A stretch of DNA of 32,000 nt. Origin: Candidatus Saccharimonadota bacterium (lineage in GTDB: Bacteria > Patescibacteriota > Microgenomatia > UBA1406 > GWC2-37-13). The stretch lies in assembly GCA_001790095.1 (NCBI GenBank), contig MGBH01000001.1, forward strand, positions 1,050,001 through 1,082,000, in the 5' to 3' direction. This document shows, one piece after another, positions 486 to 31,292 of the stretch. The number at the start of each line of letters is the position of its first letter. Within the stretch, counting starts at the first letter, position 1. The notes beneath the pieces were generated by a model. The model had not been told where the DNA came from. It did no database searches and saw only the letters and a list, made by a program, of their open reading frames with translations. Both the position numbers and the translations under genes were made by a program.

Positions 486-556
486 TTACGGGGCCAGGAG
501 TCGAACCATGGTCTAGGAGATTATGAGCCTCCTGTGCAGCCGTACACTACCCCGTA
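486..556 (-). tRNA. tRNA with CAT anticodon (elongator Met or Ile2, not initiator-like)
   Basis: Reverse strand reads TACGGGG-TA-GTGT-ACGGCT-GCAC-A-GGAGG-CTCATAA-TCTCC-TAGAC-CATGG-TTCGACT-CCTGG-CCCCGTA-A. It has a perfect 7-bp acceptor, a CUCAUAA anticodon loop and a TTCGACT T-loop. No CCA is encoded. The T-stem is imperfect (see findings). It lacks the three G-C pairs at the base of the anticodon stem expected of an initiator. Confidence 0.75.
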
Positions 557-23450: not shown

Positions 23451-24293
23451 TTAGTACACTTCGGAGGTGGTTTTGAAAGCATATTCAAACCTCGCCGGAT
23501 CATTTCCCTTGACCTTCACAATTATTTTTTTTATATCCAAGTCAACGACAGTATGGGCTTTTGATGCTAATCCGTCATTATTAGTATTTTCAATCAATGA
23601 AGTAAGGGTAAAATAGGGGATTCCCTGATGGATAAGCATTTTATTCCAGTGCTGATGAGCGGATATAACCGCCCTTACACGCCCCGACTTTTCAAGAATA
23701 TGTCGTATCTGTTTTCTATTACTTAACATCGCATGATATGGATCTTTTTCAAACCAAAAATTACCTTTCATATCATCATCAGCTAGTCCATAATGAGAAA
23801 ATACAATCGTTGGTTTATTAGTCTTTGACAGGTCAATCTTTAACCAGTCTATCTGATTATCAGGTATTTTCGCTGATATTGCGCTTAGATTATGAGTGTA
23901 ATCTTCGGTCATGACAAAACTCAAGGCGATAAAGTGAAAAAGTCCATAATCAAATGAATAATACATCTGTTTATACTTCAGTATTTTTGCGACCTCTTCA
24001 GGGTTTAGGGTGCGCACATCATGATTGCCTATAAGGTGATGTATTGGTATTTTTAAAGGAGAGAGAAGAGAAAGGAACTTTTTATAGGTTCGTATATCTA
24101 TCTCTCTACTGTTTACATCTTCGATAGAGTCGCCTAGATTTACAACAAATACCAAGCGTTTGTCCGTATTTATTTTTTTGACAAACTTGAGTATCAACTG
24201 CTCCGCCTGACCCATCAATTTCCTTTGAACACCATTTTTATATCCAACATCAAGAGGACCAAGATGAACGTCATTAATGATTGCAAACCTCAT
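23451..24293 (-). CDS. Calcineurin-like metallophosphoesterase
   Basis: NDVHLG, GDSIED, GNHD, FSHYG and SAHQH motifs in the canonical order. Confidence 0.8.
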   Translation of the reverse strand: MRFAIINDVHLGPLDVGYKNGVQRKLMGQAEQLILKFVKKINTDKRLVFVVNLGDSIEDVNSREIDIRTYKKFLSLLSPLKIPIHHLIGNHDVRTLNPEEVAKILKYKQMYYSFDYGLFHFIALSFVMTEDYTHNLSAISAKIPDNQIDWLKIDLSKTNKPTIVFSHYGLADDDMKGNFWFEKDPYHAMLSNRKQIRHILEKSGRVRAVISAHQHWNKMLIHQGIPYFTLTSLIENTNNDGLASKAHTVVDLDIKKIIVKVKGNDPARFEYAFKTTSEVY

Positions 24294-24322
24294 AATTGTA
24301 TAAGTGTATCAAAATCGATTTC

Positions 24323-25141
24323 TTATTTCTTTATTGAACCAATTGGGCCTTTGTATTTTTTAAGCCACTCTATAAAATCAACAAGAACATTGACCATATA
24401 GTCATGATATTCTTTTCCCTTTTCAGGCGACGCTTGTGAAGAGTTGGAAAAGGAACCGTCCGGTGCAAAGGCCTTTTGTTCATAGCTGTTCCACGGTATA
24501 TCAATTACCTCTTTTGATTTACCCAACAGATCGTACTGGGAATATTGAGAAAAGATCTTTTCATAGTCGATTCCCTTATTGGTCAATTTTTCTTTTTTAA
24601 TAAGGTGGGGATATTTATACCAAACATGTGACACCTCAAGCTCCCCTACATGATGCTCTACATTGACTTTTATCTTGGAGGCGACGCCTTTTGCTATCTT
24701 CATGGGGTCTGCAACAGCGAAAAATACTCCCGGCAATCTATATTCATGCAGATTCTTTACTGCAGATAAAATTGCAGGCAAATTAGCACTTTTATGGCCA
24801 TTTATGATAAGTATCTTTTTTACCCCGTTTCGTGCAAGGCTTTCGCTCATGTCTTCAATCACTGACACCAACGTTGAAGTCTTCAAAGATATAGTTCCGG
24901 CAAATCCCAGATGGTGACTTGAGTCGCCATACCATAATGGTGGAGCGACAAGTACCCCTGTTTTTTTAGCTACGTCTTCAGCTAGTGCAATTGCGGCATA
25001 ACTATCTAGCCCCAACGGTCCTGCCAACCCATGTTCTTCTGTGCTGCCAACAGGGATGATGACAATAGACTCCTTCTTTAAATACGTTTCTACATCTTTC
25101 CAGGATAACTCTTGTAACCAATACGATGATAATTTTTTCAT
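24323..25141 (-). CDS. Creatininase family amidohydrolase
   Basis: VIIPVGSTEEHG.., PLWYG.S.HH, ILIINGHKSN-type motifs. Confidence 0.8.
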   Translation of the reverse strand: MKKLSSYWLQELSWKDVETYLKKESIVIIPVGSTEEHGLAGPLGLDSYAAIALAEDVAKKTGVLVAPPLWYGDSSHHLGFAGTISLKTSTLVSVIEDMSESLARNGVKKILIINGHKSANLPAILSAVKNLHEYRLPGVFFAVADPMKIAKGVASKIKVNVEHHVGELEVSHVWYKYPHLIKKEKLTNKGIDYEKIFSQYSQYDLLGKSKEVIDIPWNSYEQKAFAPDGSFSNSSQASPEKGKEYHDYMVNVLVDFIEWLKKYKGPIGSIKK

Positions 25142-25156
25142 AGAAAATAATAATTA

Positions 25157-25942
25157 TTAATGAGCGCTTTGAAACCAAGGCGCATGTGCGTGCATGTACA
25201 TAATTGGCATGGTTTGTTTGGGAAGGAGCCATCCTCCGAGGTCTGGGCTTGTGTTGGCAAACAATATGGCATTTGGAAAGCTTGCGGAAAGCGGTTCTTT
25301 TTCTTGCATGCGCATAATAAAATACCAATAAGCTGCTTGTTCCGGACTTGCTCCGTTTCGGTGATGTTTTCCTGCTGACTCAACAAGTTGACTGTGTTGA
25401 CGGCTGTATCTTGGATCGTTCCACGCCTCATACATTTCTGAATACTCATCTATTTGTTCGTGTGTATCGGGCCTTTGAAGACTCCACTCTGTATATAGAT
25501 CGCTCAACATAAGTGTTGCAATCCCGCGCTGACTTGCCCTATATCCAATCTCTTGCAGGTAGTTATCTGCCTGGGTATACCCGTTAAAATCAGCATGAGT
25601 ATCTGCCAAAAGCAGGGTCGTTTCGATACCAGGACTATAAATGTTTCTTGTTGTGTCGTCTAATGCCTGAAGTTGGTCCAAAAAAACATCATCATATAAG
25701 TCAGGAACAGTTTTTCCTCCTGCTCCCCAAAAACCAACAAGTGGAATTCCTATACTGTTCTGTACTGCACTGGCAATCCTTTTCTCAGCCACAGAACCAA
25801 CATTGTGCCACGATTTGATAATCGTCTTTGGTGGCCATTCTCGGCCCTGCACTAAAGTGCCATCAATATTTATCCGTCGCCACAGATCAAACAAGGCTAT
25901 TCCTTTAACGCGTGATTCTTTCGAGACTACTTTTTCTGCCAT
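25157..25942 (-). CDS. Uncharacterised 261-aa protein (first gene after the attenuators)
   Basis: Start taken at the ATG 8 nt after GGAGG, not the upstream GTG at 25951. No family recognised. It is visibly more G+C-rich than its neighbours. Confidence 0.6.
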   Translation of the reverse strand: MAEKVVSKESRVKGIALFDLWRRINIDGTLVQGREWPPKTIIKSWHNVGSVAEKRIASAVQNSIGIPLVGFWGAGGKTVPDLYDDVFLDQLQALDDTTRNIYSPGIETTLLLADTHADFNGYTQADNYLQEIGYRASQRGIATLMLSDLYTEWSLQRPDTHEQIDEYSEMYEAWNDPRYSRQHSQLVESAGKHHRNGASPEQAAYWYFIMRMQEKEPLSASFPNAILFANTSPDLGGWLLPKQTMPIMYMHAHAPWFQSAH

Positions 25943-25961
25943 TTTTTTCACCTCCTTTCAT

Positions 25962-25993
25962 AAATAAAAGCAAAACCCCGCTCATGGGCGGGG
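25962..25993 (-). terminator. Intrinsic terminator of attenuator unit 2
   Basis: Minus strand reads CCCCGC-CCATGA-GCGGGG followed by TTTTGCTTTTATTT. It lies about 10 nt before the SD of CDS 25942. Confidence 0.75.
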
Positions 25994-26019
25994 TTTTAAT
26001 TGTTTAATACACAAATTAA

Positions 26020-26076
26020 CTACCGCCCATAAAAACGGGTGGTAGTACAGCATATATTAAGTATTATTTTTTTCAT
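26020..26076 (-). CDS. Leader mini-ORF 2 (MKKIILNICCTTTRFYGR)
   Basis: 18 codons with the block TGC TGT ACT ACC ACC. The Thr codons form segment 1 of the attenuator and the TAG stop lies in segment 2. No SD. Confidence 0.55.
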   Translation of the reverse strand: MKKIILNICCTTTRFYGR

Positions 26077-26091
26077 ATGTATGGGGTTCAC

Positions 26092-26116
26092 AAAAAAACC
26101 CTCCTGTTAGGAGGGG
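26092..26116 (-). terminator. Intrinsic terminator of attenuator unit 1
   Basis: Minus strand reads CCCTCCT-AAC-AGGAGGG followed by TTTTTTT. Confidence 0.8.
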
Positions 26117-26142
26117 TTTTAAAGTACAAGATTATACCCCTC

Positions 26143-26193
26143 CTAAAGAAAGGTGGTACAAGTGCAACTTAAAACGGCCATTTGCTTATTCAT
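26143..26193 (-). CDS. Leader mini-ORF 1 (MNKQMAVLSCTCTTFL)
   Basis: 16 codons with the block TGC ACT TGT ACC ACC. The TAG stop overlaps segment 2. The ATG is 8 nt after the TATACT -10 (leaderless-type). Confidence 0.55.
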   Translation of the reverse strand: MNKQMAVLSCTCTTFL

Positions 26194-26201
26194 GTAAATT
26201 A

Positions 26202-26229
26202 AGTATATAACAAATATCCTTTATATCAA
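26202..26229 (-). promoter_or_regulatory. Promoter-like TTGATA-16-TATACT driving the attenuator leader
   Basis: Minus strand reads ATTGATATAAAGGATATTTGTTATATACTTAATTTACATG. Confidence 0.5.
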
Positions 26230-26306
26230 TACGATTTATATACAAAAGATTTCAGCTTTTTTTCAGAAAGCACTGATAAAAAAAGAAACAGTTCTTTTTT
26301 TGTCCT

Positions 26307-27353
26307 ATGAACAAACGTTTAAGTCTAATCTCTATTATTGTTTTAGGAATAAGTATAGGTTTTATTATTTTTGTTTGGTTTAGATTCAAGGCTTTAGCCC
26401 CAAAGAAACAGGTAGAAGAAGGAGGCGGTTTGATAAAAGAACTTCACCCTCTTTCTATAGAGTATATGCGAAGTCAAGAATATCCCGGGAGCGATGTTGT
26501 GATTGAACAAACACTTCCGCAAGGGTCAAATTATGATAGATATATCACTTCATATAAATCAGACGGATTAAAAATTTTTGCGCTTTTGACCGTTCCACAA
26601 GGCGCAAAACCAAAGACCGGCTGGCCGGTTATTATCTTCAATCATGGCTATATTGCACCGGAGCAATATAGGACAACCGAGAAATATCTAGCATATATAG
26701 ACGCTTTTTCAAGAAATGGATACATTGTGTTCAAATCAGATTACCGTGGTCATGGTAGCTCTGAAGGAAAACCGGAGGGTGCATATTATTCCCCTGCCTA
26801 TACTATCGATATACTTAACGCTGTCTCTTCGATAAAAAAATATAAGGATGCCGATAAAAAACGTATCGGTATGTGGGGACATTCGATGGGGGGAATGATA
26901 ACGCTTCGTGCAATGGTGATAGCACAAGATATAAAAGCAGGTGATATTTGGGCAGGAGTTGTCGCGTCATATGAAGATCTGGCAAATAACTGGCATCACC
27001 CAGATCTCAACCCTCGGCCGTTTATACCATCCCAAAGAGAACAGGCAGCAAGGCGGCCAGGCAGACAATCATTTATTGACAAATATGGAAGCTTTGATAC
27101 AAATCCCACCTTTTGGATATCGGTCTCGCCTATATCTTTTGTCAAAGACATATCAGGCCCAATACAGCTTCAACATGGGACAGGAGACACAGAAGTTCCA
27201 CTTTTATTTAGTCAGAAGCTAGATGATGCCCTAAAGGGCGTTGACAAATCTGTTAAGCTTCATGCTTATGAAGGAGACGATCATAATCTTTCAAATAATC
27301 TAAATCTGGCGCTTCAACGATCAATTGAATTTTTTGATAAACATTTAAAGTAA
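26307..27353 (+). CDS. Alpha/beta hydrolase (S9 prolyl-oligopeptidase / dienelactone-hydrolase-like) with signal anchor
   Basis: Nucleophile elbow GHSMGG, C-terminal GTGD..VP and DDH, and an N-terminal TM helix. Confidence 0.75.
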   Translation: MNKRLSLISIIVLGISIGFIIFVWFRFKALAPKKQVEEGGGLIKELHPLSIEYMRSQEYPGSDVVIEQTLPQGSNYDRYITSYKSDGLKIFALLTVPQGAKPKTGWPVIIFNHGYIAPEQYRTTEKYLAYIDAFSRNGYIVFKSDYRGHGSSEGKPEGAYYSPAYTIDILNAVSSIKKYKDADKKRIGMWGHSMGGMITLRAMVIAQDIKAGDIWAGVVASYEDLANNWHHPDLNPRPFIPSQREQAARRPGRQSFIDKYGSFDTNPTFWISVSPISFVKDISGPIQLQHGTGDTEVPLLFSQKLDDALKGVDKSVKLHAYEGDDHNLSNNLNLALQRSIEFFDKHLK

Positions 27354-29068: not shown

Positions 29069-30325
29069 TTATATTATCGCCAACTTTTTTCCTGACTTAG
29101 TTATAACTTTGACAAAATATTCGATATCTTTTACCTCATGGCTTGCACTTATTTGAACTCTTATCTCATCTTTTCCTTGAGGAACAACAGGATAATTGAT
29201 ATTGGTTACAAGAATCCCTTCTTTAAAGAGGTCTTCCGTTAGAGCCTTTGTTTTTTTCGTGTCACCAATCCATACTGGTTGGATTGGGTGTATAGAGTCT
29301 GCTGCAAACTGAAACCCTGCCTTTTTCATCAATTGTTTAAACAGCTTAATATTGTCTTTTGATTTACGCAGCAGCTTTTTACCTTTTGATGATTTGACCA
29401 AATTAACAGCACTCAAAGCAGCTCCAGCCACACCTGGAGAGATCGAGTTTGAATAGATATAACTTGCTGCAGACTCCCGAAGATAATCGATGACGATTTT
29501 GTCCGCTACCACATATCCGCCATCTGCACCAAATCCTTTTCCCATAGTACCGACAAGTATGTCTGCTTTTGCACGAGTAACCTCTTCTACACCCTGACCG
29601 TTTGCGCCAAGAGATGCAACTCCATGACTATCATCAACGACAAGATGGACGCCTTCTTCATACTTGCTTTCGTGAGTTTCGATAATCTTTCTTATTTTAT
29701 CCAGATTAACATACTCACCAAGCATGCTGAAAATCCCATCTGTTACGATAAGAACCCGTTTATATCTTGCTGTATTACTCACAATAATTTCTTTAAGGTT
29801 TGCATAATCAAGGTGCTTATAGATAAGTCTTTGTTCTTTGGGAAGGTTGGCTATTCGGATTCCGTCAATGATGCTTCTATGATTAAGGCTGTCTGAAACG
29901 ACTAACGTATCACCTGAGACAAGAGAATCCTTGCTTTGTCCCTTGATCATGCAAAAAAGAACAGCCAGATTAGCGGCAAAAGCTGAGGAAAAAATCATTG
30001 CATCTTCCCGTTTGTGAAATGTGGCCAAAGCTTTTTCAAGATCCTTGTACACTTTAAAAGTACCTGATATAAATCTAACAGCTCCTGGTCCAGTACCAAA
30101 TGTTTGAGAAGCGTTTTCCTCCCCTTTTCTTAAGGCACTCTCAAACCTCAGTCCGAGGTAATCGTTTGAGTTAAAGATAAGGTATCTCTTTTTTTTTATG
30201 ATCGCGCGCGGGGATGGATCATCTGTAAAACCTTCTATGATTTTTTCACCCCTTTTTGCCGTATGGGAATGGTCAATTCGTTCAATTTCTTTTTGTAAAA
30301 CCGAATGAAATAAATTTCTTTTCAT
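29069..30325 (-). CDS. kbl: 2-amino-3-ketobutyrate CoA ligase (glycine C-acetyltransferase), PLP-dependent
   Basis: 418 aa of the alpha-oxoamine synthase family with DDSHG and the PLP-Lys motif GTMGKGFG. It is adjacent to an SDR-type threonine dehydrogenase. Confidence 0.75.
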   Translation of the reverse strand: MKRNLFHSVLQKEIERIDHSHTAKRGEKIIEGFTDDPSPRAIIKKKRYLIFNSNDYLGLRFESALRKGEENASQTFGTGPGAVRFISGTFKVYKDLEKALATFHKREDAMIFSSAFAANLAVLFCMIKGQSKDSLVSGDTLVVSDSLNHRSIIDGIRIANLPKEQRLIYKHLDYANLKEIIVSNTARYKRVLIVTDGIFSMLGEYVNLDKIRKIIETHESKYEEGVHLVVDDSHGVASLGANGQGVEEVTRAKADILVGTMGKGFGADGGYVVADKIVIDYLRESAASYIYSNSISPGVAGAALSAVNLVKSSKGKKLLRKSKDNIKLFKQLMKKAGFQFAADSIHPIQPVWIGDTKKTKALTEDLFKEGILVTNINYPVVPQGKDEIRVQISASHEVKDIEYFVKVITKSGKKLAII

Positions 30326-30344: not shown

Positions 30345-31292
30345 CTATTTTGATTGTTCCAACTTTTTCTTTAACCCCTCATACATAACTTTTGTCATTT
30401 TTGATAAATTATATTTTGGTTTCCAGCCCCAGTCTTTTCTGGCTTCTCTGTCATCGATTGATCTGGGCCAACTATCGGCGATGCGCTGGCGATGATCCGG
30501 TTTGTAGTCATGGGTAAATCCAGGTACAAACTTAATGATTTCCTTTACCAATTCCTCAGGCGTGAAGCTGACGGCGGCGAAATTATAGCTTGTTCTAATG
30601 GTGATTTTTTTTGATGGCGCATTCATAAGGTTAATAGTGCCTTCTATCGCATCATCGATATACATCATGGGAAGGCGGGCATCTTTCTTTAAAAAAATAC
30701 TGTAGTTTTTATTCCGTATAGCTCCATAAAAAATATGAACAGAATATTCTGTAGTGCCATCGCCAGGAGGAGCATTATACCCGATAAGGCCAGGATATCG
30801 CAGACTTCTCACATCAAGCCCGTGTTTTAAAAAGTAATACTGACAAAGAAGCTCTCCAGCCACCTTATTGACTCCATACATGGTGGTTGGTTCTAAAATT
30901 GTGTGTTGAGGAGTATGGTCTTTAGGTGTTGATGGTCCAAATGCGGCAATTGAACTTGGCCAAAAGATTTTAATCTTATGCATTACTCCCAGATCAAGAA
31001 TGTTTTTTAAGCCGCCTAAGTTTACTTCCCATGCGAGGGATGGATTTTTCTCGCTTGAAACAGACAGAAGACCTGCCAGATGATAGATCTCAGTTACATG
31101 GTGCTTCTTTATTATTTTTGATAAAACATTTTTGTCCCTCACGTCACCATGTTCTACAATCTCTCCATAGTTTATTCCGGATGTCTTATGATTAAGAGCA
31201 ACGATTGCTTTTGATGAATACTTTTTTTGAAGAGCTTTTCTTAAATCTGTTCCAACCAAGCCAAAGGCACCTGTGATGAGGATTTTTTTCAT
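30345..31292 (-). CDS. tdh: NAD-dependent epimerase/dehydratase-fold L-threonine 3-dehydrogenase
   Basis: 315 aa with ILITGAFGLVG (GxxGxxG) and YGVNK (YxxxK). The TDH assignment rests on the pairing with kbl. Confidence 0.65.
   Translation of the reverse strand: MKKILITGAFGLVGTDLRKALQKKYSSKAIVALNHKTSGINYGEIVEHGDVRDKNVLSKIIKKHHVTEIYHLAGLLSVSSEKNPSLAWEVNLGGLKNILDLGVMHKIKIFWPSSIAAFGPSTPKDHTPQHTILEPTTMYGVNKVAGELLCQYYFLKHGLDVRSLRYPGLIGYNAPPGDGTTEYSVHIFYGAIRNKNYSIFLKKDARLPMMYIDDAIEGTINLMNAPSKKITIRTSYNFAAVSFTPEELVKEIIKFVPGFTHDYKPDHRQRIADSWPRSIDDREARKDWGWKPKYNLSKMTKVMYEGLKKKLEQSK

Follow-up and report, generated by a model that had tools for sequence, protein, structure and literature searches.

In the analysed window, a stretch of 32,000 nucleotides of the Candidatus Saccharimonadota bacterium assembly GCA_001790095.1 (contig MGBH01000001.1, positions 1,050,001 to 1,082,000), two genes for proteins of unknown function are preceded on the minus strand by a leader with two short open reading frames (sORFs), each followed by an intrinsic terminator (Table 1). 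The earlier note had described this leader as two tandem leader-peptide attenuators, each with a Cys2-Thr3 codon block, in front of an orphan operon. Every element was found on the minus strand where the note had placed it, and the observation was confirmed to the base.

Table 1 Features of the leader and of the downstream genes (all on the minus strand; positions are those of the window)
Feature	Position	Sequence and remarks
Promoter, sigma-70 type	26202..26229	TTGATA (26229..26224), 16 nt, TATACT (26207..26202); the -10 hexamer ends 8 nt before the ATG of sORF1
sORF1 (leader peptide 1)	26143..26193	MNKQMAVLSCTCTTFL*; control block Cys-Thr-Cys-Thr-Thr at 26166..26152; predicted to be leaderless or nearly so
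Unit 1, segment 1	26149..26161	overlaps the second Cys codon, the Thr codons and the following Phe codon; pairs with segment 2
Unit 1, segment 2	26132..26144	AGGAGGGGTATAA; starts inside the TAG stop codon; pairs with segment 1 or segment 3
Unit 1, segments 3 and 4 (terminator 1)	26099..26116	CCCCTCCT ... AGGAGGG; hairpin CCCTCCT-AAC-AGGAGGG at 26115..26099
T7 tract of terminator 1	26092..26098	predicted site of premature 3' ends
sORF2 (leader peptide 2)	26020..26076	MKKIILNICCTTTRFYGR*; control block Cys-Cys-Thr-Thr-Thr at 26052..26038; no Shine-Dalgarno sequence of its own
Unit 2, segment 1	26037..26045	CTACCACCC (the Thr codons)
Unit 2, segment 2	26020..26030	ATGGGCGGTAG; ends with the stop codon
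Unit 2, segments 3 and 4 (terminator 2)	25966..25998	AAAACCCCGC-CCATGA-GCGGGGTTTT (25998..25971) plus the tail TTTTGCTTTT; the part of segment 3 pairing with segment 2 is 25991..25984
Shine-Dalgarno sequence of gene 1	25948..25955	GGAGGTGA
Regulated gene 1	25157..25942	261-aa protein; ATG at 25942; distant PvcA/isonitrile-synthase-like fold; no cysteine
Regulated gene 2	24323..25141	272-aa protein; creatininase-family (PF02633) metal-dependent hydrolase; no cysteine
Metallophosphoesterase gene	23451..24293	possibly co-transcribed; gap of 29 nt without terminator; not conserved at this position in other loci

The promoter matches 10 of 12 positions and is the best promoter-like site in 24000..27000. 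The minimum-free-energy fold of 25940..26200 forms the 1:2 and 3:4 hairpins in both units, with an energy of -81.4 kcal/mol (z = -5.4 against 200 shuffles). The alternative 2:3 pairings are perfect complements of 8 bp, AGGAGGGG/CCCCTCCT in unit 1 and ATGGGCGG/CCGCCCAT in unit 2. Their duplex energies of -20.8 (z = -6.8) and -20.4 kcal/mol are stronger than those of the terminators with -10.6 and -16.7 kcal/mol. Both strands of the window and of 32 collected loci were scanned for a sORF with a Cys/Thr block followed by a T-run, and these leaders were the only hits. Thus, the pattern is not due to chance.

Orthologous leaders were examined regarding the conservation of this design. From Roizmanbacteria-type genomes and metagenomes 22 distinct leaders with 40 units of sORF plus terminator were recovered, located upstream of orthologues sharing 27-60% protein identity. 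The design recurs upstream of every orthologous gene whose 5' flank is available. All leaders keep an ATG-initiated sORF of 13-25 codons with at least one Cys codon, usually followed by a Thr run. Each sORF holds 1-5 Cys and 0-5 Thr codons, and Thr and Cys account for 18% and 10.8% of the sORF residues. The blocks of first-unit orthologues read NCTCTT, NCTTT(T), CINC and CC, those of second-unit orthologues NNCCTTTT, VCTTTT, CCCACC and CCCAC. In two loci (L005 and L010; L numbers denote the collected loci) pure Cys runs were found, whereas the leader of L036 has one Cys plus a Thr run. Hence, Cys and not the Cys2-Thr3 block as such is the invariant feature, which corrects the earlier note in this point. 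The stop codon lies 0-3 nt from the GGAG core of segment 2 in all first units, although UAG, UGA and UAA are all used. In the second units it lies at the 3' end of segment 2, with the exception of L025, where it is found 12 nt further on. An intrinsic terminator follows 20-35 nt after the stop codon and is present in all 40 units. The Shine-Dalgarno sequence of gene 1 is conserved as (A)GGAGGTGA in the orthologous loci and lies outside the hairpins in the window. A -10-like hexamer was detected 6-9 nt before the first ATG in 15 of 18 leaders; the leaderless start of sORF1 is predicted from this spacing alone. For sORF2 no -10-like hexamer at the right distance was found by inspection of the window and the orthologous leaders.

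A plain MAFFT alignment of 18 first units evaluated with RNAalifold recovered only four terminator pairs, because indels scramble segments 1 and 2. Therefore, alignment-free duplex energies and the better-aligned second units were used. The 2:3 duplex energies were between -13 and -22 kcal/mol in 33 of the 34 units measured (the second unit of L025 was mis-windowed in this calculation), and in 31 of the 34 units the duplex was at least as strong as the terminator. The z values against shuffles were about -2 to -7. Native pairs averaged -16.8 kcal/mol, whereas pairs swapped between loci averaged -12.8 kcal/mol. The 1:2 energies of the same calculation were based on a crude segment boundary and are not informative. 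On an unfitted MAFFT alignment of 15 second units, the 1:2 helix was 82.7% paired against at most 57% in slid controls, and none of 500 shuffles reached its score. The 2:3 helix was 74.6% paired against at most 54.5%, with 4 of 500 shuffles. Column 80 in segment 3 covaries with its partner in segment 2 (AU 8, GC 4) as well as with its partner in segment 4 (CG 6, UA 6, UG 2). A clear compensatory change was observed between L026 and L027, where ACA to AGA in the sORF (Thr to Arg) is matched by GUUGUAGUU to GUUCUAGUU in segment 2. Of 13 variable sites in the aligned codon blocks 12 are third positions, and all 12 are synonymous. The covariation and enrichment statistics were not corrected for phylogeny.

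The effect of a ribosome on the leader was investigated with a partition-function model, in which the RNA covered by the ribosome was occluded. The terminator probability was about 0.9 or more for the free RNA, for a ribosome on early codons and for a ribosome at the stop codon, but about 0 with the A site on the Cys/Thr block. In unit 1 of the window, occlusion of segment 1 abolishes the terminator in the model. The switch was observed in 20 of 21 first units and in 10 of 19 second units. The other nine second units stay terminated in this equilibrium model even with the ribosome on the block and would need the kinetic advantage of 2:3 forming first. The read-through window holds 83% of the Cys codons and 55% of the Thr codons, but only 16% of other codons. 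This agrees with the remark in the earlier note that the Cys codons and the first Thr codon are best placed for stalling.

The leader is not a member of an Rfam family. With gathering thresholds, Rfam gave only a tRNA in the whole window. With permissive E-values (up to 10) only sub-threshold hits driven by the terminator hairpin were obtained in 25800..26400. These included Thr_leader (RF00506; 22.4 bits against 55), Phe_leader (24.9 against 55), Leu_leader (21.7 against 50) and Trp_leader (21.7 against 41), besides stronger hits to rnk_pseudo and isrJ. No T-box hit was obtained in this region even at E up to 10, and a T-box reading of ACC plus UGGG was rejected, because the units are too short and give no model hit.

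The 261-aa protein matches no Pfam or NCBIfam family, a profile search against PDB sequences gave nothing significant, and all database names of the family are 'hypothetical protein'. It shows fold similarity to PvcA/isonitrile synthases with TM values of 0.51-0.58 at 12-16% identity, a Rossmann fold like that of class-I aaRS and cyclodipeptide synthases. Only remote fused relatives touch the PvcA/Dit1 family PF05141: P0042 with 29.8 bits is just above the cut-off of 26.4 bits, and P0043 with 22.9 bits is below it. The protein is thus a fold relative, whose membership and chemistry are unproven. The creatininase-family protein scores below the cut-offs of IolN, creatininase and MftE, and its gene always follows gene 1. 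A literature search linking isonitrile synthase with creatininase returned no paper. Together the two proteins contain one Cys in 8,544 residues across 16 loci, against 0.74% Cys in neighbouring ORFs, although Cys is rare in this organism's proteins anyway and 11 of 47 background ORFs have none. Thr amounts to 2.9% against 5.0%, and some orthologues have only 1-2 Thr in 250 residues. Proteins that must be made during starvation for an amino acid are known to be depleted of it (cognate bias).

In contrast to the description in the earlier note, the operon is not fully orphan. Besides the fold of its first gene product, the cassette is embedded in threonine and translation gene neighbourhoods. 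In 8 distinct loci it is followed by thrS, which in two of them heads thrS-infC-rpmI-rplT-pheST. A gene for a ThrRS editing domain is adjacent in one more locus. The genes tdh-kbl abut the leader in L024 and lie 3 kb away on the same strand in the window. In the window and several other loci thrS is absent, and where present it may also have its own promoter. Two-unit leaders with thrS downstream tend to have fewer Cys codons (2-4 against 4-7), but this trend has exceptions, is confounded by phylogeny and is reported only as a lead.

We consider it probable that the leader consists of two ribosome-mediated transcription attenuators in series, which switch on the operon when charged tRNA for Cys and Thr runs low. 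In this view transcription starts at about the AUG of sORF1, so that the first ribosome loads on a leaderless RNA. With plentiful Cys-tRNA and Thr-tRNA the ribosome would run to the stop codon and cover segment 2, segments 3 and 4 would form the terminator, and the transcript would end at the T tract. Without any ribosome 1:2 would form, with the same result. A ribosome stalled on the Cys/Thr codons would cover segment 1 only, segment 2 would pair with segment 3, and RNA polymerase would read through into unit 2, where the test is repeated. Only transcripts passing both units would reach the operon and, where thrS lies downstream, would continue into it. Two checkpoints in series should give low basal expression and a steep response. 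The presence and conservation of the structural parts, the covariation of the alternative pairings, the selection at the codon level and the depletion of Cys and Thr in the regulated proteins were shown by sequence analysis. In contrast, translation of the sORFs, the leaderless start, premature termination and its relief by stalling are inferred from sequence alone, as is the identity of the physiological signal, which we think is both amino acids, with Cys universal and Thr linked to thrS. Likewise, it is only a prediction that the two enzymes help to restore the supply or charging of Cys and Thr. Some points speak against the model. The absence of a Shine-Dalgarno sequence and of an own promoter leaves the initiation of sORF2 unexplained. 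The Thr codons are themselves segment 1, and part of their conservation could therefore be structural rather than sensory. Furthermore, a mixed Cys/Thr signal has no obvious single metabolic rationale as long as the function of the enzymes is unknown. On the whole, the interpretation given in the earlier note is supported: its sequence-based criteria, sORFs and a Cys (mostly also Thr) block in orthologous leaders and compensatory changes in the pairings, were examined and fulfilled.

Other readings appear unlikely. The sORFs could encode tiny RiPP-like precursors processed by the downstream enzymes, with the creatininase-family protein as MftE-like peptidase and the hairpins merely setting the ratio of precursor to enzyme transcript. 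The blocks consist of heterocyclisable or lanthionine-forming residues (CTCTT, CCTTTT, CCCACC, CTSTTST), CTCTT also occurs in the plantazolicin core, a precursor gene followed by a leaky terminator is common in RiPP clusters, and gene 2 shows weak similarity to MftE (82 bits against a cut-off of 172). However, Pfam and NCBIfam scans of the neighbours in the window and the loci detected no known RiPP enzyme class, with no YcaO, LanB/C/M, radical SAM or RRE. The N-terminal parts of the peptides of 13-25 aa run from 6 to 12 residues and are not conserved, so that there is no conserved leader region, a Thr to Arg change is tolerated where RNA pairing is restored, and the C-terminal residues (WEDL and similar) are dictated by segment 2. 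A terminator that only sets a ratio needs neither the pairing of segment 2 with both segments 1 and 3 nor a stop codon fixed against segment 2, and the Cys and Thr depletion of the enzymes fits starvation expression. Hence, this reading is disfavoured, as the earlier note had judged. Constitutive partial terminators or remnants with chance ORFs are even less likely. Beyond the existence of the terminators nothing supports them, and the conserved, covarying design and its absence elsewhere in the scanned window and 32 loci contradict them.

A stall caused by the nascent peptide sensing a small molecule or a ribosome-targeting antibiotic, as with TnaC, SpeFL or Erm leaders, would use the same RNA geometry. 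The motif N-C-T-(C/T)-T-T is conserved at the peptide level, and leader peptides of this size are typical of such systems (compare PMC4191407; PMC6851288). We regard this as unlikely, too, since the pure Cys runs in L005 and L010 fit codon or tRNA identity better than a tunnel-binding motif, the distance from the N-terminus to the block varies from 6 to 12 residues, and the regulated genes are not resistance- or catabolism-like. Moreover, the depletion of Cys and Thr and the thrS linkage point to these two amino acids themselves. Similarly, the hairpins and terminators alone would support a ribosome-independent riboswitch, T-box-like tRNA sensor or protein-binding leader with incidental ORFs, and the missing Shine-Dalgarno sequence of sORF2 would agree with this. 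Against it stand the lack of any Rfam hit at threshold, including T-box and all riboswitch classes, the size of only about 100 nt per unit without a conserved unpaired core resembling a ligand pocket, the three-base periodicity of variation, the conserved ATG, the conserved position of a changing stop codon and the distance of the -10 box to the first ATG.

The leader shares with the classical attenuators of Proteobacteria (trpL, thrL, hisL, pheL, leuL) the four-segment geometry, control codons on or just 5' of segment 1, the stop codon at segment 2 and the terminator with U tract. Of these, thrL also uses Thr runs and senses two amino acids, Thr and Ile. Different are the Cys control codons, the two complete attenuators in series, the predicted leaderless first sORF, the CPR host and regulated genes that are no recognised biosynthetic operon. 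In mycobacteria, polycysteine leaderless sORFs were described as attenuators (Canestrari et al., bioRxiv 10.1101/834739) and predicted earlier (PMC1262725). There, a leaderless sORF with Cys codons near its 3' end is the first cistron, as predicted here for sORF1, and ribosome stalling at Cys codons de-represses downstream genes, as proposed here. True Cys runs occur here only in L005 and L010, while the window has two Cys per sORF. Here each sORF is coupled to a canonical terminator and antiterminator, Thr accompanies Cys in most loci and the units are tandem. Leader peptides with cognate codons also precede aminoacyl-tRNA synthetase genes. Examples are pheM-pheST of E. coli, the His leader upstream of hisS paralogues in bacilli (PMC2965389) and trpS and leuS in Streptomyces (PMC1262725). 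In the 8 loci with thrS the Thr-rich leader likewise precedes a transcription unit that would run into thrS, but two unrelated enzyme genes lie between leader and thrS. The T-box control of thrS and thrZ in Bacillus has the same regulated function, a response to uncharged tRNA-Thr, and tandem riboswitches or T-boxes likewise place sensors in series to sharpen the response, but the sensor proposed here is a translating ribosome and not a tRNA-binding RNA.

A further-reaching reading, which we consider doubtful, takes the regulatory codons as a functional label. The enzyme pair would then be an unrecognised system restoring charged tRNA-Cys and tRNA-Thr in bacteria thought to lack amino-acid biosynthesis. 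It could be a new salvage or synthesis route for Cys and Thr, genomically tied to tdh-kbl, which can run in reverse to make Thr. More speculatively, it could supply the catalytic zinc on which, among aaRSs, ThrRS and CysRS specifically depend for amino-acid recognition, and the leader would be a proxy zinc sensor.

The depletion of the cognate amino acids in the regulated proteins offers an independent way, from sequence alone, to validate predicted attenuators elsewhere. The leader gives a testable functional handle on a conserved, unannotated enzyme pair, which should matter when Cys and/or Thr are short, in organisms whose way of obtaining amino acids is an open question. It combines a predicted leaderless initiation, a mixed Cys/Thr signal and two sensors in series, and appears to be the first Cys-sensing attenuator of the classical terminator type, since the mycobacterial ones act on translation. 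Leader-peptide attenuation is textbook for Proteobacteria and known in Actinobacteria and some Firmicutes, but no report for the Candidate Phyla Radiation was found in our literature search. If the proposed mechanism holds, this case would show that these ultra-small bacteria monitor tRNA charging with a translating ribosome.

The elements of the leader follow each other on the minus strand in the order listed at the top of the table. The promoter is the best promoter-like match in 24000..27000 and the first short open reading frame (sORF1) begins 8 nt further on. For the free RNA, pairing of segments 1:2 plus 3:4 was predicted in both units, with a folding energy of -81.4 kcal/mol and z = -5.4. 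The 2:3 duplexes described in the earlier note could be confirmed and are strong; with -20.8 and -20.4 kcal/mol they exceed the terminators at -10.6 and -16.7 kcal/mol. The observation of two sORF-plus-terminator units in front of this gene holds. No Rfam family reached its threshold for the leader, and the only Rfam match at threshold in the window was a tRNA gene. The weak hits include the Phe, Thr, Leu and Trp leader families, which were all far below the gathering score, together with stronger hits to rnk_pseudo and isrJ that align to the terminator hairpin.

Coordinates of the leader elements, the regulated genes and further features in the window and in orthologous loci (L numbers denote the collected loci)
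Sequence	Coordinates	Strand	Feature
Window	26229..26202	-	Promoter, TTGATA-16-TATACT
Window	26193..26143	-	sORF1, MNKQMAVLSCTCTTFL*
Window	26115..26099	-	Hairpin CCCTCCT-AAC-AGGAGGG, followed by T7
Window	26099..26144		Region of unit 1 with Shine-Dalgarno-like segments 2 and 4 (GGAGGGG, GGAGGG) and anti-SD-like segment 3 (CCCCUCC), also in orthologues
Window	26076..26020	-	sORF2, MKKIILNICCTTTRFYGR*
Window	25998..25971	-	11-bp GC-rich hairpin, followed by TTTTGCTTTT
Window	25942	-	ATG of the 261-aa protein, preceded by GGAGGTGA
Window	24323..25942	-	The two cassette genes
Window	23451..24293		Metallophosphoesterase, no Cys
Window	30345..31292	-	SDR-type L-threonine 3-dehydrogenase, E 1e-105 to PDB 2yy7
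Window	29069..30325	-	Glycine C-acetyltransferase (Kbl)-like gene
Window	486..556	-	tRNA gene, anticodon CAU, 42.3 bits against Rfam tRNA
L033	7608..9449		thrS following the cassette
L036	7593..9416		thrS following the cassette
L012	1240..1320		Extra hairpin with shared core GAAGCTTTAGCGAAG
L018	560..605		Extra hairpin with shared core GAAGCTTTAGCGAAG
L005	1021..1130		ATA instead of ATG at the conserved start of the predicted PvcA-fold gene
L017	2905..2945		In-frame TGA early in the predicted PvcA-fold gene
L030	526..3630		Distant relative of the 261-aa protein as C-terminal domain
L031	541..3627		Distant relative of the 261-aa protein as C-terminal domain
L010	4614..5396	-	PIG-L family deacetylase

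The 261-aa protein is 100% identical to a hypothetical protein of Candidatus Roizmanbacteria, a CPR bacterium, and matches no Pfam or NCBIfam family. An AlphaFold model with a mean pLDDT of 85 was compared with known structures. The best matches were the isonitrile synthases PIsnA and PvcA (TM 0.51-0.58, 12-16% identity), followed by TyrRS catalytic domains and cyclodipeptide synthases. In a profile search 378 relatives were found. Some of them are fused to AsnB-like and NMT1/THI5-like domains, and two of those touch PF05141, one just above its gathering score and one below. In L030 and L031 the relative forms the C-terminal domain of proteins of about 1,030 aa, which also carry an AsnB-type glutamine amidotransferase/synthetase and an NMT1/THI5-like domain; these loci have no leader sORFs. 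The next gene encodes a creatininase-family hydrolase, which scores below the cut-offs of IolN, creatininase and MftE. It follows the first gene in every locus whose sequence extends past gene 1. No minus-strand terminator was found before 22058, so the metallophosphoesterase and the CNNM gene may be co-transcribed here, but they are not conserved partners elsewhere.

For the comparison of the leader, loci were collected by exact look-up, a genome scan and a metagenome scan. This yielded 22 distinct leaders with 40 units. Every unit has an ATG sORF of 13-25 codons, at least one Cys codon and a terminator 20-35 nt after the stop codon. Typical first units read ..N-C-T-C-T-T.. or ..N-C-T-T-T(T).., typical second units ..N-C-C-T-T-T-T.. 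or ..V-C-T-T-T-T... In contrast, L005 and L010 have no Thr in the block; they carry C-I-N-C / C-C-C-A-C-C and C-C-P / C-C-C-A-C. Three leaders have a single unit. Cys is therefore the invariant feature and Thr the usual companion; Thr makes up 18% and Cys 10.8% of all sORF residues. In first units the stop codon (UAG, UGA or UAA) always sits 0-3 nt before the GGAG core of segment 2. In second units it sits at the 3' end of segment 2, except in L025, where it lies 12 nt further on. Its position is fixed while its identity varies. A Cys/Thr-block sORF followed by a T-run occurs nowhere else in the window or in the 32 loci collected at the time of the scan.

Some loci deviate in detail. The extra hairpin of L012 and L018 lies between terminator 2 and the Shine-Dalgarno sequence of the main gene, and L012 also has about 100 nt inserted between units 1 and 2; this could be a third regulatory element or a small insertion. 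Due to the ATA in L005, the gene caller extended the ORF upstream across sORF2, giving 299 aa. This is either a non-canonical start or a sequencing error. The gene with the in-frame TGA in L017, where the leader is intact, is either a pseudogene or the result of an assembly error. The MAG contigs of L010, L011 and L012 are titled 'uncultured Gammaproteobacteria bacterium', but carry the same cassette and leader as Roizmanbacteria genomes, so the label may be wrong.

The alternative pairings were examined by duplex energies and by covariation. The 2:3 duplexes have -13 to -22 kcal/mol in 33 of the 34 units measured and are at least as stable as the terminator in 31 of those 34, with z against shuffles of about -2 to -7. 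Native pairs average -16.8 kcal/mol against -12.8 kcal/mol for cross-locus swaps. On a plain MAFFT alignment of 15 second units, 1:2 is 82.7% paired against at most 57% in slid controls, and 0 of 500 shuffles reach its covariation score. For 2:3, 74.6% pairing was found against at most 54.5%, with 4 of 500 shuffles, and 3:4 is 78.3% paired; neither these nor the other statistics on the pairings are corrected for phylogeny. Column 80 in segment 3 covaries with its segment-2 partner (AU 8, GC 4) as well as with its segment-4 partner (CG 6, UA 6, UG 2), which is what mutually exclusive helices predict. A direct example is given by two loci: L026 has ACA in the sORF paired to GUUGUAGUU, whereas L027 has AGA (Thr to Arg) paired to GUUCUAGUU. 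RNA pairing is kept here at the cost of the peptide.

To investigate if this geometry makes a switch, a ribosome was modelled as an unpaired footprint running from A-site -15 to +12 (or +9) on an RNA ending at the 3' arm of the terminator, and the terminator probability was computed from the partition function at every codon. With no ribosome, with the ribosome on early codons or at the stop codon, the probability is about 0.9 or higher. With the A site on the Cys/Thr block it falls to about 0. In this model the switch appears in 20 of 21 first units and 10 of 19 second units; for the window the traces are 99710000000059999 and 9999999007189999999. In switching units, 45 of 54 Cys codons, 49 of 89 Thr codons and 54 of 336 other codons lie in the predicted read-through window (odds ratio 10). 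The nine second units that stay terminated at equilibrium have long terminator stems. They would need the kinetic head start of 2:3, a plausible assumption.

Furthermore, it was examined if the sORFs are read as codons. In three groups of aligned blocks, 12 of 13 variable sites are third positions and all 12 are synonymous (TGT/TGC and ACT/ACC/ACA). An RNA-only constraint would not give this periodicity. A -10-like hexamer lies 6-9 nt before the ATG of sORF1 in 15 of 18 leaders, which predicts a leaderless or near-leaderless sORF1. For sORF2 neither a Shine-Dalgarno sequence nor a promoter was found. The SD-like segment 4 lies 7-22 nt upstream of its ATG and would be single-stranded only after antitermination, so that it could serve as SD only then; this route to initiation is speculative. 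Segment 2 could hold the terminating ribosome.

Independent evidence was obtained from the regulated proteins. In the window and the orthologues of 15 further loci, the predicted PvcA-fold and the creatininase-family proteins contain 1 Cys in 8,544 residues (0.01%), compared with 0.74% in 47 neighbouring ORFs. Thr amounts to 2.9% against 5.0%, and several predicted PvcA-fold orthologues have only 1-2 Thr in about 250 residues. Proteins that must be made when an amino acid is scarce are known to be depleted of this amino acid. Cys is rare in these genomes and 11 of the 47 background ORFs have none, but its absence from all but one of 32 divergent proteins is still far from expectation.

The genomic context points to threonine and translation. 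The gene after the cassette is thrS in 8 distinct loci (L012, L013, L018/19, L024, L025, L026, L033 and L036). In L033 and L036, thrS heads the conserved thrS-infC-rpmI-rplT-pheS-pheT cluster. There it follows the cassette after a 57-60 nt AT-rich gap, which holds TATAAT 8-9 nt before the thrS ATG and no Shine-Dalgarno sequence; thrS may therefore also be made from its own promoter as a leaderless mRNA. A convergent free-standing ThrRS editing domain was found in L020/21. An SDR-type L-threonine dehydrogenase and a Kbl-like gene directly abut the leader in L024, and the same pair lies 3 kb upstream on the same strand in the window. This pair could degrade Thr or, run in reverse, make it. A Zn-type tdh-like gene lies next to L027. 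The loci with the fewest Thr codons in the leader (L005, L006, L010) have no thrS downstream, but this is a trend only. In L010, one of the two loci whose leaders have Cys codons only, the PIG-L family deacetylase (the MshB/BshB family used in Cys-containing thiol synthesis) converges on the cassette, which may be coincidence.

Taken together, the best explanation, held with good confidence, is two classical ribosome-mediated transcription attenuators in series that respond to slow decoding of Cys and Thr codons. The interpretation as leader-peptide attenuation in the earlier note is thus supported. The parts, their conservation, the covariation, the selection at the codon level and the amino acid depletion result from the sequence analysis itself. 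Translation of the sORFs, the leaderless start, ribosome stalling, which amino acid matters when, and the role of the enzymes are in contrast inferred.

Other readings were considered and are unlikely. For RiPP precursors, which the earlier note had rated as the weaker alternative, no enzymes of a known RiPP class are present in the neighbourhoods scanned with Pfam and NCBIfam and no leader region is conserved, and RNA wins over peptide where the two conflict. Sensing of a drug or metabolite by the nascent peptide is only slightly less doubtful, as it is hard to square with the pure Cys runs and with the Cys/Thr-depleted proteins. A ribosome-independent switch is contradicted by the codon periodicity and the placement of the stop codon, and the absence of any regulation is considered least likely.

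The element works like trpL and thrL, but is not a member of any Rfam leader family. Cys leader peptides are known in Actinobacteria. They lack terminators (PMC1262725) and were shown to act by unmasking a ribosome-binding site from a leaderless poly-Cys sORF (10.1101/834739). Leader peptides upstream of aaRS genes were described for hisS in bacilli (PMC2965389). The pheST genes of E. coli are also preceded by a leader peptide. No paper on leader-peptide attenuation in CPR or Patescibacteria was found in our literature search. While the mechanism is known, the combination of features is new: an inferred terminator-type Cys sensor with a mixed Cys/Thr signal, a tandem layout and a first sORF predicted to be leaderless, in a CPR host and with an unknown, almost Cys-free enzyme pair as the target.
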